In this document: piece by piece, positions 22,623 to 28,339 of the stretch
Position numbering within the stretch: the first letter of the stretch is position 1
How the letters are laid out: each line of letters starts with the position of its first letter
NCBI GenBank assembly: GCA_048940645.1
Contig: JBHLOI010000021.1
Coordinates: 1 to 54,351, forward strand
Length of the DNA stretch: 54,351 nucleotides
Direction of reading: 5' to 3'
From: Promethearchaeota archaeon
GTDB taxonomy: Archaea > Asgardarchaeota > Lokiarchaeia > Sigyniarchaeales > SOKP01
Position numbers and translations under genes: made by a program
Notes under the pieces: model-generated
Databases searched by the model: none
Seen by the model: the letters and a program-made list of their open reading frames with translations, nothing else
Told to the model about the DNA's origin: nothing

Positions 22623-24152
22623 ATGAAAGCTAACTATTTAAATATTTCAGAAAAAAAGAGAAGGATATACTCTTTTATTTTGTTGTCCTTGCTATTACCT
22701 ACACTCATGATTATAAACTATAATTTGCTCGGGTTTCATACTAATCAAGATAGGAAGAATATTATTATCAATAACGTTCAAGAAAATTTATGCACAAGTA
22801 ACACTTATCAATTAGTTGATCCTATTAATATTTCGTCATGGAATGATTGGGCTAATTATCCTTTTATTTCCGGAAATGGTACTAGTTTAAATCCATTTAT
22901 TATAGAAAATATTGAAATAAATGGTACTGGCGTTAAAACGATACTCTCAGGCAATGATACTCGACTCGATTATACATATAGAGGAATCTTTGTTAATGCT
23001 AATGGTTCATTTATTATTCAGAATTGTAAAATATCCCATACTTCAATCGGGATATATTTATATGTTGGCATATCTCCTGGGACTTATCTTATTAGAAATG
23101 TTGAGATTAATAATTGTAGTATAGGAATTTATAGTTGGTGGCCACATGTTGTAGTAAATATCACCAATTGCTATATTCATGATTGCAATTGGGTTTCTAT
23201 AAAAGCAAAATTAGATTTACATGGCTACTCAGATTACGGTGGAGTTGGAATCTGGGTAAGATCAAATACAGGTTCTGTTATTGATAATTGCAGTATTCAT
23301 GATTGTGCAATAGGGATGAGTGCAGGAAGTGTAGAATTTATTCGAAAGAATGAATTTATTAATTGTGGTATAGTTCTTAGTATGTATTTTTCAAATTATG
23401 ATATTAGCAACACGGTCAATGGAAAACCGATAGGTTTATTCTGGGGAATAGATAATATGATTTTTACCCAAATTAATGCCTCTCAATATGGACAATTAAT
23501 TTTTGTAAGTTGCAATAACCTTTCTCTTTCAAATATTCATATTACTGAACCTTCTAGTATTGGAATTCAATTATATTCTCTTAGCGTTGAACAACAAACA
23601 ACCCATTTAAGTAATATTGTAGTTGAAAATCAAAAACTAGCTATGTATATTGCTGGACGTAATATAGTTGGGGATTATCTATCTATTAAAAACTGTAGTG
23701 CTGGATTCTATTTTGAAAATATTTACCATAGTAGATTTACAAATATTATGATAGATAATACTGATATACCTATTTATATAAAGACACCGATTAATAATGT
23801 TACTATTGAAATTGAACGATTTACTAAATTTTATTTAGTTGATGATATGGCTTTGTATGGGGAAAAGCTACATGTTGAGTCGTTAGATACATCATATAAT
23901 GTGTCAATGTCTTATATTCCAGAATTAGGAATGCGAGGTTATGTTACTCAATTTAATGATAATAATATCTATCAACTTAGCCTTGTTTGGTCATATGAAG
24001 TTCGAGCAAATTTTACAATCATCTCAGGCTCACCTTATACAAATCCGGATAGAGAGATCCCAGGATATCATCTATTTTGGCTCTGGAGTATAGTTATCAT
24101 AGGATTCGTAATATTGATTGAATCTCGCCGAAATAAATTTTACAAAAATTAA
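22623..24152 (+). CDS. Cell-surface right-handed beta-helix (NosD/CASH-like) protein with Loki-CTERM-like tail
   Basis: N-terminal hydrophobic helix; GNGTSLNPFIIEN; IxNCxI repeats; NTVNGKPI; C-terminal IPGY-TM-basic tail. Confidence 0.78.
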   Translation: MKANYLNISEKKRRIYSFILLSLLLPTLMIINYNLLGFHTNQDRKNIIINNVQENLCTSNTYQLVDPINISSWNDWANYPFISGNGTSLNPFIIENIEINGTGVKTILSGNDTRLDYTYRGIFVNANGSFIIQNCKISHTSIGIYLYVGISPGTYLIRNVEINNCSIGIYSWWPHVVVNITNCYIHDCNWVSIKAKLDLHGYSDYGGVGIWVRSNTGSVIDNCSIHDCAIGMSAGSVEFIRKNEFINCGIVLSMYFSNYDISNTVNGKPIGLFWGIDNMIFTQINASQYGQLIFVSCNNLSLSNIHITEPSSIGIQLYSLSVEQQTTHLSNIVVENQKLAMYIAGRNIVGDYLSIKNCSAGFYFENIYHSRFTNIMIDNTDIPIYIKTPINNVTIEIERFTKFYLVDDMALYGEKLHVESLDTSYNVSMSYIPELGMRGYVTQFNDNNIYQLSLVWSYEVRANFTIISGSPYTNPDREIPGYHLFWLWSIVIIGFVILIESRRNKFYKN

Positions 24153-24193: not shown

Positions 24194-24955
24194 TTAGAAT
24201 TTTCCATGTTTTCCTTTCCCTAAAGCAAATTCCTTGCTTCCTTCAAGATATTCTCCACTTTGTAAGGTATTTAAGCCATATTCAAATTCATTTTTCATTG
24301 CTTCCTTAAAATTCATACTAAATTGTTCATAAGTAGAGAGTTTATCGTTTCTCATACACGTTTGAGGAAATGATGCGATTTCTATAGCTAATTTTTCGGC
24401 TTCTTCTCTAGCAGTTCCATCTTTTACTACTCTATTTGCTAAACCCCAGTCGAAAGCTTGTTGAGCGGATACTGGCCTTCCAGTTAAAATCATATCTAAA
24501 GCTCTACTTAACCCTATTAATCTTGGAAGCCGCACAGTACCTCCATCAATTAAAGGAACTCCAAACCGACGAGAAAAGACTCCAAAAATGGCACTTTCCT
24601 CCACTATACGTAGATCACACCATAAAGCAAGTTCTAATCCACCAGCAACCGCATAACCTGCTACAGCAGCAATAATAGGTTTAGAAAGTATCATTCTTGA
24701 GGGTCCCATTGGACCATCTCCTTCTTTATCTATTCTATTACCACGTCCTTCAGCAATAGCTTTAAGGTTTGCGCCTGAACAAAAAGCACCATTCGCACCC
24801 CATAAAACAGCAACAAGTGCATTATTATCGCGTTCAAATTCTCTGAATGCATTAGCAAGCTCTAATGCTGTGGGGCCATCCACAGCATTTTTCACTTTAG
24901 GATTATCAATAATTACTGTATAAACTGGATATTTCTTTTCAATTAAAATTGCCAT
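24194..24955 (-). CDS. Enoyl-CoA hydratase/isomerase (crotonase) family
   Basis: FCSGANL, KPIIAAVAGYAVAGGLELALWCD, GVPLIDGGTVRLPRLIG. Confidence 0.92.
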   Translation of the reverse strand: MAILIEKKYPVYTVIIDNPKVKNAVDGPTALELANAFREFERDNNALVAVLWGANGAFCSGANLKAIAEGRGNRIDKEGDGPMGPSRMILSKPIIAAVAGYAVAGGLELALWCDLRIVEESAIFGVFSRRFGVPLIDGGTVRLPRLIGLSRALDMILTGRPVSAQQAFDWGLANRVVKDGTAREEAEKLAIEIASFPQTCMRNDKLSTYEQFSMNFKEAMKNEFEYGLNTLQSGEYLEGSKEFALGKGKHGKF

Positions 24956-25016
24956 GAAAAAAATAGAATTATAAAGATAATAAAATTATTCTAAAAAAAA
25001 ACACTAAAAAAATATT

Positions 25017-26105
25017 TTATTTTTGATTTGCTAAGTATTCATTCATTTCTACAAAACTACTTGTTCTAATAAGAGCAGCTTTGAGAAATTGGAATCCAAT
25101 ATCGTATGTAGAACCATCTCCTCCAATATGAATAACCCAAGGTATTTCTTTATTATATAAGCCCTTTGCTTTCATAATTTTTTTGGCTGTGATAATCCCA
25201 TCAGCAACAGTAGCTCCTGACTCGAATAAGTGGTGAACCCAAGGCACATTCCAAGATGTCACGTTATCTTTTGAAGTGGAGACTTCAGAACAACTTGTAT
25301 TATTTATATAAATAATATTCTTTCCCGATACAGCTTGAGCTGCAGTGGCGAGTTGATTAAGGACCATACCTGCACCACAACCGGGGCAAAGTCCATGACC
25401 TGGTTGAAGGTGTTTTTGAGGTTCTAGACTTTTACGATTTACTCTATAAAAGTCTATTGGTTTTTCTGCTCCAAATTGTTCTATAAGTCCTTTAAGTTTT
25501 TTATTCCTTTGTTCCGTTAAATAGATAATTTCATCAATTTCTTTTTCCATAAACTTAGGTTTGAAGAGATGTCTAAATCTTCCCATAGATTTTAAATATT
25601 CAACGAACTTTTCTTTATCAATATCCAATCCCCGGTAATAGGTAAATTCAGGAACTCCATCCTCTACCCTTATGGTGTATAAAGGCCAATAACCACAATC
25701 TGTAGCTAGTTTTGATATTTCCAGAGCCACAGAAGCTCCATGTCTCCAACCTCTCATACAATCTGAATATGCTTGAATAAATGCAGAACCATTTGATTTA
25801 AGAGCATCCGCTACTTTTCCCATGAAATCTGCTGGATAAGCGGGGTTAACTGTTGCTAAGAACAATTTTTTTGTTCCATAAAAAGCAAAGGGAGTAACCA
25901 AGTCTTGCTTAACTCCAACTTTACCAGGTATTTTTTCTCCTGCAGGTCCGGTAGTGGTTGAGGCATACGGGGGAGTTCCTCCACTTTCCTGGATTCCAGT
26001 ATTCATAAAAGCTTCATTATCATAATTGAAGAATAAAACATTACATTTGCCATCTCTCGCTAATATATCTTCAAAATTAATTACATTTCTTTCTGGTTTC
26101 GACAT
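25017..26105 (-). CDS. porB: Pyruvate/2-oxoacid:ferredoxin oxidoreductase beta subunit, circularly permuted
   Basis: All PorB motifs are present in swapped order: YDNEAFMNTGIQ...DCMRGW...WPLY...GRFRHLF first, then PGHGLCPGCG...TSCSEV...VPWVHHLFE...GGDGSTYDIGFQ. Confidence 0.88.
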   Translation of the reverse strand: MSKPERNVINFEDILARDGKCNVLFFNYDNEAFMNTGIQESGGTPPYASTTTGPAGEKIPGKVGVKQDLVTPFAFYGTKKLFLATVNPAYPADFMGKVADALKSNGSAFIQAYSDCMRGWRHGASVALEISKLATDCGYWPLYTIRVEDGVPEFTYYRGLDIDKEKFVEYLKSMGRFRHLFKPKFMEKEIDEIIYLTEQRNKKLKGLIEQFGAEKPIDFYRVNRKSLEPQKHLQPGHGLCPGCGAGMVLNQLATAAQAVSGKNIIYINNTSCSEVSTSKDNVTSWNVPWVHHLFESGATVADGIITAKKIMKAKGLYNKEIPWVIHIGGDGSTYDIGFQFLKAALIRTSSFVEMNEYLANQK

Positions 26106-26108
26106 TTT

Positions 26109-27335
26109 TTAATCCACCCCAAAAATTTTTTCCTTTGTTTCTCTTACTCCCAAATATTGATAAAGTTGGCCATTCATATCTGAAACTAAAGCCATTTTCC
26201 TTTTAGCAATGTCTAATTCGTCTCTCGTTACATCTCTGCCACCTAAACCCACTATAAAACTTCTAAATAATGTTCCAAGAGGGTATAATGCGGATGCAAT
26301 AGACATTGAAAACGGAGGAAGCATGCCATTTAGCGAATCAGACTTCTCTAGAATGATTAATTTCTCAATATTATGGTCTTCAACTATTTTTCGTAATTCT
26401 TCATAAGGAAATGGTCGAAAAGCACGAATTTTGATAAGCCCAATATCCTTGTTCTTTAGCATCCAACTGATAATATTACCACACATTGAACCCATCGTGC
26501 AAAAAGCTGTTTTTGAAGAATTATCTAGATTATAAGTTTCAATTAAATCGTATTCTCTCCCGGTAAACTTTTTAAATTTTGAAAAAACTTCTCTCAATTG
26601 ATTCAAAACAGGCTTTTTAGCTTCATCTAGATTCTTTCTTCCTTCCATAAAATAAGATGGGGTTACAATTCCTCCCCAAGTCCCTGGTTTTGAGGGATCA
26701 ATCGTATGTCGTGGTTTCTTTGGAGTCATTTGTCTAACAGCTTCATCTGGAATAAGAGTTAATTTTTGAACTGAGTGTGAAATAATAAAACCATCATGAA
26801 CAAACATAGTTGGGAATAACGAGTCTTCAGAAATCATTACTGAGAGGATTGCAGCATCGTAGGTCTCTTGAACATTCTCAGATACAATGCAATTCCACCC
26901 CATTTCTGAATTTGTTTCAGTAAACTCCCATGAATTCCAAATACTTAAATTAGGACTATTAAAGGCTCTTGCGCTAATCATCATAGTTAATGGTAAACGC
27001 CATCCTACTGCCATGGGTAATGCTTCAGTCATTAGTAAATACCCTTGACTCGCTGTTGCTGTAAACGATCTTGCACCTGCTGCACAAGCAGCGGTTGAAA
27101 AACTAATAGCAGCTAATTCAGATTCTACATTGACAAAAGCAGCCTTTAATCTACCTTGATGGACAACATCAGATAATCCCTCTACAGATTGAGTCTGCGG
27201 TGTTATAGGAAATGCGCAAATGACATCAGGATCTGTCTGCGTCACTCCCCCTGCAACAGCATAATTTCCAATCATCGTAGTCGTAATTGGTTCTTTAATC
27301 TCTTTAAAAAATATTCTCATAGGTTCTATTGACAA
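26109..27335 (-). CDS. porA: Pyruvate/2-oxoacid:ferredoxin oxidoreductase alpha subunit
   Basis: GNYAVA, FPITPQT, VESELAA, TATASQG, DGFIISH, RAFRPFP, GLGGRD; TTG start with GGAGGT SD. Confidence 0.9.
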   Translation of the reverse strand: MSIEPMRIFFKEIKEPITTTMIGNYAVAGGVTQTDPDVICAFPITPQTQSVEGLSDVVHQGRLKAAFVNVESELAAISFSTAACAAGARSFTATASQGYLLMTEALPMAVGWRLPLTMMISARAFNSPNLSIWNSWEFTETNSEMGWNCIVSENVQETYDAAILSVMISEDSLFPTMFVHDGFIISHSVQKLTLIPDEAVRQMTPKKPRHTIDPSKPGTWGGIVTPSYFMEGRKNLDEAKKPVLNQLREVFSKFKKFTGREYDLIETYNLDNSSKTAFCTMGSMCGNIISWMLKNKDIGLIKIRAFRPFPYEELRKIVEDHNIEKLIILEKSDSLNGMLPPFSMSIASALYPLGTLFRSFIVGLGGRDVTRDELDIAKRKMALVSDMNGQLYQYLGVRETKEKIFGVD

Positions 27336-27337
27336 TT

Positions 27338-28339
27338 TTAATTACCTCCTTCTTGATCTTCTGGAACAGCACAAGATGCTGGACCTTGTTTTAATCTTTT
27401 ACTTATAGCATCTACTGGGCAGACTTCAAGGCAATTTTGACATGATTTACAGTGAAATTGATCAATACCTTTCATGTGCCATTGTCCATCATCTCCTTTG
27501 TCTCTGACTATAGCAAAATCAGGGCAAATGTACCAACATTGAGCGCAATCAGTACATTTTTCTTCATCCCAAATCATATCCCATTCTCCCCAAGAACCAG
27601 TATTAACCTGTCCACTTCCCATTTCTATAACATCTTCATCGCAATACCAAACTCCCGCTTTATCAACTTCTTTATATCCTGGCAATCCAGGGAATACTTG
27701 TTGCCAAGGTACTTTTGTATCAACCGTAAAATCGGGATCTAAACCAATATCGTAAACACATGTTTCTTCAATAGCTTGTTTTATTGCTGCAACATTTTTA
27801 GCAGCCAATTCTCCCTTAAAGCGTCTCATTATTGCATCTGCTAAAGCATCTACTGAAAAAATAGGCATAACACGAAGGATGCCACCTAAAATAATGGTAT
27901 TGGTAATATTTCTACCCAATACATCTAAAGCTATTCTAGTTGCATCAATTGTGCCAATATTAATATCTTTTCTGCCAACAACATCTTGAATTTCTAATTG
28001 ATTTAAAACTGTATTAACAATCAACCAACCTCCCTTGGCTAATCCGGCAGTTACATCGATTTCTCCTAAAAGAGAAGGATCTAATACAGCTACAACATGA
28101 GGAGCATACACTTGTTCATTTGTTCTAACTAGATCGTCATTACCACTCAGTCTTACATAACTTTCCGTAGGAGAACCCATGCGTTCAGCTCCAAACATTG
28201 GTTGACATACACCATAACCATAAAAAGCTTCTACACACAAATTTGAAGCTGTTACTCCGCCTTGTCCACCTCTCGCATGAAATCGAAGATTTATAACATT
28301 CTCTTTTAAAACTTCTTCTAATTGTTCAGCGCTTAACAT
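27338..28339 (-). CDS. 2-oxoacid:ferredoxin oxidoreductase gamma subunit fused to delta (2x[4Fe-4S]) subunit
   Basis: RGGQGGVTA, FGAERMGSP, NTIILG (gamma); NTGSW, CxxCxxCxxxCP twice (delta). Confidence 0.9.
   Translation of the reverse strand: MLSAEQLEEVLKENVINLRFHARGGQGGVTASNLCVEAFYGYGVCQPMFGAERMGSPTESYVRLSGNDDLVRTNEQVYAPHVVAVLDPSLLGEIDVTAGLAKGGWLIVNTVLNQLEIQDVVGRKDINIGTIDATRIALDVLGRNITNTIILGGILRVMPIFSVDALADAIMRRFKGELAAKNVAAIKQAIEETCVYDIGLDPDFTVDTKVPWQQVFPGLPGYKEVDKAGVWYCDEDVIEMGSGQVNTGSWGEWDMIWDEEKCTDCAQCWYICPDFAIVRDKGDDGQWHMKGIDQFHCKSCQNCLEVCPVDAISKRLKQGPASCAVPEDQEGGN

Follow-up and report, generated by a model that had tools for sequence, protein, structure and literature searches.

The closest described relatives of the protein studied here are beta subunits of 2-oxoacid:ferredoxin oxidoreductases (OFORs), namely PorB of Methanosarcina acetivorans (9bt4 chain C, NF008819), the beta subunit of the oxalate oxidoreductase (OOR) of Moorella thermoacetica (5c4i, 5exd), and domain VI of the homodimeric pyruvate:ferredoxin oxidoreductases (PFORs; D. 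africanus 1b0p/7plm, Moorella 6cin). In all of them, the half with the GDG motif of the thiamine diphosphate (ThDP)/Mg2+ site precedes the half with the second metal ligand, an order that we call canonical. Where natural circular permutations occur in other proteins, the usual explanation is a tandem duplication followed by loss of the outer parts. Here, we analysed a stretch of 54,351 nucleotides from a Promethearchaeota archaeon of the class Lokiarchaeia (assembly GCA_048940645.1, contig JBHLOI010000021.1, positions 1 to 54,351), hereafter the window. It encodes a PorB-type beta subunit of 362 amino acids (25017..26105; minus strand, as are all window features below unless stated) in which the two halves are swapped. 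This permutation is real, old, under selection and class-specific, and it affects a subunit of a core anaerobic enzyme. In all likelihood, the gene product works as the circularly permuted beta subunit of an OFOR of the pyruvate type that is encoded by three genes (gamma-delta, alpha and beta).

Swapped order of the two halves

The best match in a phmmer search of all PDB chains was PorB of M. acetivorans (9bt4_C, E 9e-49), aligned in two high-scoring segment pairs of swapped order: residues 229-347 of the window protein matched chain residues 6-115, and residues 23-194 matched 119-283. The OOR beta chain 5c4i_C likewise gave two swapped segment pairs (E 7e-44), and PFOR domain VI also matched in swapped order. 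An earlier note on this DNA, written from the letters alone, had proposed a natural circular permutation and an alignment with known PorB to check it. Against solved PorB the alignment was swapped and not colinear, and the arrangement is heritable across the class. The NCBIfam model PorB NF008819 scored 210 bits in two swapped stretches (cut-off 405), and Pfam TPP_enzyme_C (PF02775) covered profile positions 72-150 alone, at residues 20-111; neither gave a colinear match above the curated cut-off. These low scores are due to the swap itself, as each half scores well.

The open reading frame (ORF), described as uninterrupted in the earlier note, is indeed open over 362 codons plus stop. It starts with a new N-terminal tail (residues 1-21, 26043..26105), with a predicted strand (6-10) and helix (11-15), for which no canonical counterpart was detected. 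The block equivalent to the canonical C-half follows (residues 22-210, 25476..26042) and holds a strand, the DNE motif, the ThDP loop, C116, GW, WPLY, GRFRHLF and the long C-terminal helix. A junction of 11 residues (211-221, FGAEKPIDFYR, 25443..25475), with a short predicted strand at 217-221, is the sole stretch that no canonical homologue covers. The block equivalent to the N-half (residues 222-347, 25065..25442) holds PGHGLCPGCG, TSC, VPW, GGDG and the helix after GDG. It is followed by a new C-terminal tail (residues 348-362, 25020..25064), recognized from the alignment, the structural model and the substitution pattern. Along the chain, the order is thus NYDNEAFMNTGIQ at 27-39, C116, GW, WPLY, GRFRHLF and the linker, and then PGHGLCPGCG, TSC, VPW and GGDGSTYDIGFQ at 328-339. 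All motifs named in the earlier note were located in the translation in the order given there. Each half is present once in the single ORF, with no motif repeated and no stop codon.

In the alignment with D. africanus PFOR, the two side-chain Mg2+ ligands D963 and T991 correspond to D330, in G329-D330-G331 (25113..25121), and N30, in D29-N30-E31 (26013..26021), respectively, and N996 corresponds to N35. Three ligands of the proximal [4Fe-4S] cluster, C812, C815 and C840, correspond to C240, C243 and C272 (25290..25388), and the fourth, C1071, to C116 (25758..25760). All of these residues are invariant among the permuted homologues, and the four cysteines are retained as previously claimed. Judged from this alignment, the permutation cut splits the ThDP motif between its metal ligands, with D330 near the C-terminus and N30 near the N-terminus, where the earlier note had placed the break.

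Predicted fold

An AlphaFold2 model of the permuted beta subunit, built from a 35-sequence alignment, had a predicted TM-score (pTM) of 0.83 and a mean predicted local distance difference test score (pLDDT) of 75. The canonical PorB of the same genome was modelled with a pLDDT of 95.6. The order of secondary-structure elements in the permuted model was an exact rotation of the canonical one, with 12 C-half elements followed by 8 N-half elements. The first block comprised E21-29, H72-75, E80-86, H91-102, E106-113, H117-120, H124-136, E142-148, E151-158, H164-173, H175-180 and H187-211, equivalent to canonical E123-128 to H275-298. The second comprised H244-260, E264-268, H272-278, E289-291, H297-313, E323-328, H330-335 and H338-350, equivalent to canonical H24-36 to H109-117. 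Extra elements were found at the new N-terminus (E6-10 and H11-15), at the junction (E217-221) and at the new C-terminus (H352-359).

Structural comparison with VIA-align matched the C-half (~165 residues) to PFOR domain VI, PorB and OOR beta with Z 9.4-11, and the N-half to the beta chains 8ys5_C and 5b46_B of two other OFORs with Z 4.6-4.7. Such half-by-half matches are the expected behaviour of a sequential aligner on a permutation. Foldseek TM-scores (0.37) were uninformative, because sequential aligners can cover one half only. By these comparisons, the modelled protein has the PP-domain fold of PorB, and the pTM of 0.83 suggests how the halves would be placed relative to each other in three dimensions. 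The earlier note had looked to structure prediction for a reassembly of GDG and the asparagine. The rotation of the elements came out exactly, and the reassembly itself is predicted.

Distribution in the class and in databases

A word-indexed search over 5.8 billion proteins returned more than 120 clusters of ~361 amino acids that were 54-90% identical to the window protein over their full length. They came from NCBI, JGI, ENA and Logan. Most of the NCBI entries are named 'hypothetical protein' and belong to metagenome-assembled genomes (MAGs) of Promethearchaeota or Lokiarchaeota. The swap halves every model score, which explains these labels.

We also searched 400 genomes of the phylum, 160 from the class of the window (its own genome uncounted) and 240 others. 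A genome was counted if one match spanned the full length (query ~1-362) with E below 1e-120, or if it had a piece of such a match cut by a contig end. In the class, at least 129 of 160 genomes had the permuted order: 107/134 in family f1, 1/1 in f2, 12/14 in f3, 4/4 in f4, 1/3 in f5, 2/2 in f6 and 2/2 in f7. This proportion (81%) is a lower bound, as some absences are contig breaks; in G207, G244 and G246, the alpha gene lies at a contig edge. In the other 240 genomes, only weak split matches were found, as for a canonical PorB, with the sole exception of G075. The alpha partner is class-limited in the same way, with no match below E 1e-75 outside the class. The survey of Asgard PorB proposed in the earlier note thus placed the permuted order in one class, where the relatives are not canonical at this gene.

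In G075 (family f16), contigs C23 and C29 carry a beta fragment 95% identical and two alpha copies 98% identical to the window genes. They are likely a bin contaminant from the genus of the window.

The window comes from a 126-contig MAG, in which canonical porB pieces might have been misjoined or two adjacent genes read as one. Such an artefact is a practically negligible explanation. The same single ORF of ~361 amino acids recurs in the clusters from four independent sources and in the genomes counted above, including five single-contig assemblies (G135, G138, G143, G189 and G279). Furthermore, the junction is conserved and under purifying selection, and no motif is duplicated. The mis-assembly that the earlier note had considered is thereby ruled out.

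Rarity and phylogeny

A HMMER scan covered 1.84 billion representatives clustered at 50% identity, and the best 150 matches were classified by the order of their halves. Among these 150, the C-half preceded the N-half in one full-length protein (P0122, from a Helarchaeota MAG, 54% identity) and in one fragment. The canonical order was present in 129, and the others had a single half only.

For phylogenetic analysis, 36 permuted sequences were rotated back in silico and placed in a tree together with 84 canonical beta sequences. The permuted sequences formed one clade (SH-aLRT, an approximate likelihood-ratio test, 100) on a stem of 0.74 substitutions per site. As this class-limited clade is monophyletic, a single origin follows. 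The idea of a lineage marker raised in the earlier note is borne out by this clade and by the restriction of both beta and alpha to one class. The tree placed the alpha-beta fusions P0181 and P0213 as sister group (SH-aLRT 96). We do not trust this placement, given ~30% identity and long branches, and it may be long-branch attraction. An apparent match of P0213 to the linker was actually the end of its alpha part.

The nearest canonical clusters were an intein-bearing PorB of Altiarchaeales (P0126) and then a PorB of Bathyarchaeia (P0127, 43% identity). The canonical PorB of the window's own genome (C32:11259-12158) is only 29-36% identical to the permuted protein, which makes the permuted gene an old paralogue and not a recent rearrangement of that copy. 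This genome (G000) has at least five further OFOR loci, on contigs C32, C37, C38 and C11 (two loci). Among them, the C32 locus is a complete canonical four-subunit set, two are truncated at contig ends, and two are of a two-subunit alpha/beta type.

Inteins with a LAGLIDADG domain were seen just past GDG in three canonical PorB homologues, P0126 (852 amino acids, Altiarchaeales), P0210 and P0317. The TPP_enzyme_C match of P0126 stops at residue 126, ahead of an intein that occupies 133-667; P0210 returns to extein sequence with 'SFDIGLQALSG'. This insertion site precedes the permutation cut by ~15 residues.

Full-text literature searches on circular permutation in ferredoxin oxidoreductases, in ThDP enzymes and in Asgard archaea found no description of such a protein. 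The earlier note knew of none either, and the permuted PorB is apparently undescribed.

The junction and the origin of the permutation

Alignments of canonical homologues with the permuted protein run to its residues 204-215, where the homologues are within ~10 residues of their ends, and pick up again at 218-229 with residue 3 or a later one of the homologue. The junction is therefore the old C-terminus joined to the old N-terminus. The linker of the permuted protein is matched by both the C-terminal helix and the N-terminal head of P0127, as seen with 'HLFTPKFEKMLEEIQRLTDERWDRLLKRCG' in P0127 next to 'HLFKPKFMEKEIDEIIYLTEQRNKKLKGLIEQFG' in the window protein. By these alignments, the linker consists of the former C-terminal helix running into the former N-terminal head, and only ~10 residues (211-221) are left over. 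As a correction to the earlier note, the linker is not new sequence, nearly all of it being canonical helix and head.

A full C-terminal helix followed by an N-terminal head is what an in-frame fusion of tandem copies would leave. Our best guess is hence that two tandem copies fused in frame on the stem of the class and that the outer parts were then lost. Profile-profile Smith-Waterman alignment with column shuffles found no remnant of a duplication in the tails (p = 0.31, 0.49, 0.38 and 0.64, no better than controls). A search for tandem or longer intermediates among proteins of 635-2000 amino acids returned intein-bearing canonical PorB only. By eye, 'NVINFEDILA' in the N-tail resembled the post-GDG helix, and 'FVEMNEYL' in the C-tail resembled 'YVxYDNEAYM'; as vestigial duplicates, both were rejected after shuffles gave no significant signal. 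With a low mact setting, hhalign extended both alignments until they overlapped at canonical positions 112-142.

Alternatively, porB could have been split at the GDG/DNE loop and the parts fused again in reverse order. The lack of a detectable duplication remnant would fit this route, as would database proteins that start exactly at the C-half (P0216, P0263). However, the proteins of this kind (P0216, P0223, P0240, P0263) were rejected as split forms, since they resemble fragments or internal-Met calls, several of them without a start Met. No split pair was found in the class, and the junction keeps the full helix and head that a head-to-tail tandem fusion predicts. We consider fission and re-fusion improbable.

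Selection

In an alignment of 35 homologues (54-90% identity), NYDNEA, N35-T36-G37, Q39, C116, G119-W120, C240, C243, C272 and G329-D330-G331 were invariant. Nei-Gojobori dN/dS against ten orthologues was 0.027-0.059. Non-synonymous changes were far below synonymous ones (pN far below pS) in the N-tail, the C-half, the linker, the N-half and the C-tail, each taken separately. Both halves, the linker and both tails are therefore under strong purifying selection. In distant families (P0094-P0116), the C-tail ends in Y-C-x-D-x-Y-C-E (alignment columns 360-370); the two conserved cysteines of this motif are absent from the window protein.

Operon and partner subunits

Upstream of beta lie the genes of an alpha subunit with POR_N and PFOR_II domains (26109..27335, 408 amino acids) and of a fused gamma-delta subunit with a POR domain and a 2x[4Fe-4S] ferredoxin domain (27338..28339, 333 amino acids), both identified by domain matches. 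The gamma/delta-alpha-beta operon is present as the earlier note read it. The beta ORF starts with ATG 3 nt past the alpha stop codon. Its Shine-Dalgarno sequence GGGGTGG, also noted before, lies inside the 3' end of the alpha gene (26114..26120 in plus-strand numbering). The gamma-delta/alpha/beta order was conserved in five of six distant relatives. In the sixth, the closed genome G279, beta (contig C1, 1502548-1503600) is 540 kb from alpha and gamma-delta (2045958-2047169).

The gene table of the cultured MK-D1 (Imachi et al. 2020, PMC7015854) lists a histone (DSAG12_00807), 'VorB' with K00170 (00808), PorA (00809) and a gamma subunit with COG1014 and COG1144 (00810). These are followed by three hypothetical proteins (00811-00813) and by a Ras-family GTPase, a formiminotransferase-cyclodeaminase, RimO and an inositol dehydrogenase (00814-00817). 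DSAG12_00808-00810 are listed by the authors as pyruvate:ferredoxin oxidoreductase, EC 1.2.7.1, with expression values in reads per kilobase per million of 286 for DSAG12_00808, 372 for alpha and 314 for gamma-delta (PMC7015854). Around the permuted beta gene of the closed genome G143 (locus L026), the genes follow the order of DSAG12_00807-00817, so that DSAG12_00808 is probably the permuted gene of MK-D1. The single-contig assembly G135 was rejected as MK-D1, as its neighbouring genes differ, whereas G143 matches the MK-D1 gene order. The text and supplementary files of PMC7015854 do not mention a swapped order.

Function and substrate

As predicted from the alignments, the chain would begin at the strand preceding the DNE ligand, run through the canonical C-half to the C-terminal helix, enter the canonical N-terminus via ~10 joining residues, and end past the GDG ligand and the following helix. 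Folding would bring the chain ends together at the diphosphate/Mg2+ site, where D330 and N30 would jointly bind ThDP-Mg. C240, C243, C272 and C116 would hold the proximal [4Fe-4S] cluster as in canonical PorB. At the alpha/beta interface, ThDP would decarboxylate a 2-oxoacid, pyruvate or another small one, as in any POR, and electrons would reach ferredoxin by way of the beta cluster and then the two delta clusters. The permuted enzyme is very probably active, with catalysis being a prediction from sequence.

Several points weigh against a functional pyruvate-type enzyme with this history. In at least two relatives, alpha and gamma-delta are intact, and the permuted beta stops after 13-24 residues (G165, contig C65, locus L029, 2489-3393; G270, contig C54, locus L028, 2450-2878). 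The subunit could be dispensable there, or the MAG contigs could be chimeric. The model has low confidence in its last 10 residues and at 31-68, a loop that in solved PFORs packs ThDP against the alpha subunit and that was folded here without alpha and cofactor. The proximity of D330 and N30 would follow from the rotated order and not from model coordinates. The proposed duplication has left neither remnant nor intermediate as direct support. Lastly, the best NCBIfam models, PorA_Arch, PorB and Por gamma, scored 306/550, 210/405 and 158/225 (score/cut-off). With all three below the curated cut-offs, no equivalog assignment is reached and the substrate call is weak.

Some of these points would also fit a decaying or non-catalytic paralogue, that is, a pseudo-enzyme or scaffold without ThDP, with the canonical C32 PorB doing the work. 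Other OFOR loci are at hand in the genome, including a complete canonical four-subunit one, family-model scores are all below cut-off, and beta is truncated in G165 and G270 next to an intact alpha. Nevertheless, a dN/dS of 0.03-0.06 is hard to reconcile with decay, and GDG, NYDNEA, NTG.Q, the four cysteines and GW are invariant across the class. The permuted beta co-occurs with its own alpha and gamma-delta partners, and in MK-D1, transcription of its probable orthologue matches that of the neighbouring genes. The low model scores are accounted for by the swap, as the halves score well singly. We therefore regard a non-catalytic paralogue as very unlikely.

With respect to the substrate of the active enzyme, the alpha subunit keeps the pyruvate-site residues of PFOR: when it is aligned with 7plm, T45, R123 and I132 fall on T31, R114 and I123. 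In beta, N35 is the equivalent of N996. VOR-type enzymes, too, may retain these residues. The OOR models NF045791, NF045792 and NF045790 scored 144/500, 185/590 and 71/230, far below their cut-offs. A functional permuted OFOR for 2-oxobutyrate, 2-oxoisovalerate or another amino-acid-derived 2-oxoacid is possible, if doubtful. VorB and other 2-oxoacid models score only slightly below the Por models, both Vor and Por appear among the MK-D1 product names, the stem of the clade is long (0.74 substitutions per site), and MK-D1 lives on amino acids via 2-oxoacids (PMC7015854). On the other hand, the four pyruvate-site residues are kept, the top-scoring models are PorA_Arch, PorB and Por gamma, and KEGG assigns K00169, K00170 and K00172 in MK-D1, all of which argue for pyruvate.

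Neighbouring genes

Runs of T7 and T9 just past the beta stop codon (24994..25013) are a probable archaeal oligo-T terminator closing the operon. Downstream, an enoyl-CoA hydratase/isomerase gene (24194-24955) has a TATA-like box ~20 nt before its ATG and probably forms a separate, nearly leaderless transcript. It was rejected as a part of the system, as it is not syntenic in relatives and is set apart by the T-runs and the TATA-like box. On the plus strand, 22623-24152 encodes a 509-amino-acid Asn/Ile-rich protein with hydrophobic N- and C-terminal stretches and many short repeats ('NCSI', 'HDC'), which may be a beta-helix surface protein.

In G165, the beta stub is followed by two opposite-strand ORFs, with motifs read as a HEPN (DUF86)/nucleotidyltransferase toxin-antitoxin pair. 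Either an insertion destroyed beta, or the MAG contig is chimeric. An apparent 715-amino-acid fusion of alpha and permuted beta in G259 was discarded, as it spans a 100-N scaffold gap.

Implications

The permutation is a discrete, easily scored, class-limited character, which exposed the likely bin contaminant in G075. The POR of Loki-type genomes can, because of the swap, look incomplete in automated metabolic reconstructions, and such reconstructions feed eukaryogenesis models that rest on 2-oxoacid catabolism (PMC7015854). The finding is of solid interest for the fields of OFORs, ThDP enzymes and Asgard metabolism, with a practical consequence for annotation. As a natural experiment in which the GDG...N ThDP motif would be assembled from two chain ends, it also suggests a permissive site for the engineering of permuted or split OFORs.

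More speculatively, and rather unlikely in our view, the permutation might be non-neutral, with the chain ends and their conserved tails of 15-21 residues adding, at the ThDP/Mg2+ site, a property that canonical PORs lack. The ends might offer another route of cofactor loading, gate the diphosphate pocket, or touch alpha or gamma-delta in a new way. If so, the retention of the permuted gene alongside canonical paralogues throughout the history of the class would be accounted for. On this reading, if true, the protein would also be the first case of natural intradomain circular permutation to be described in the ThDP-enzyme superfamily, and a clean rare genomic change for the class to which the cultured Asgard archaea belong.

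Comparison with known systems

The permuted beta subunit resembles PorB of M. acetivorans in its ThDP/Mg (GDG, DNE) and proximal [4Fe-4S] residues and in its secondary-structure elements (VIA-align Z 9.7), and in both cases the gene lies beside alpha and gamma/delta genes. It differs in that the canonical part from ~119 to the end comes first and 1-~115 last, in ~21 extra N-terminal and 15 extra C-terminal residues, and in the fusion of gamma and delta. The OOR of M. thermoacetica is likewise encoded by three genes, one of them for a subunit that combines domains III and V, and its model NF045790 matches the window gamma-delta at 52-313. However, its own beta has the canonical order, and the window alpha has the PFOR-type site ARAFNSPNLSIWN and not that of OOR. 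Domain VI of homodimeric PFOR is a homologous PP domain (VIA-align Z 10.3-11). In contrast to the permuted subunit, it is part of a single 1,200-amino-acid chain in canonical order, and only the C-half aligns sequentially. The Bathyarchaeia PorB P0127 and the genome's own C32 PorB are also canonical.

Compared with natural circular permutations elsewhere, no intermediate or remnant was found here. Otherwise, the general features are shared: one ORF, each half present once, the old termini joined by their own tails, and the new termini in a surface loop. What sets the permuted beta subunit apart from them is the position of the cut: it divides the signature ThDP motif, leaving one metal ligand on each side.

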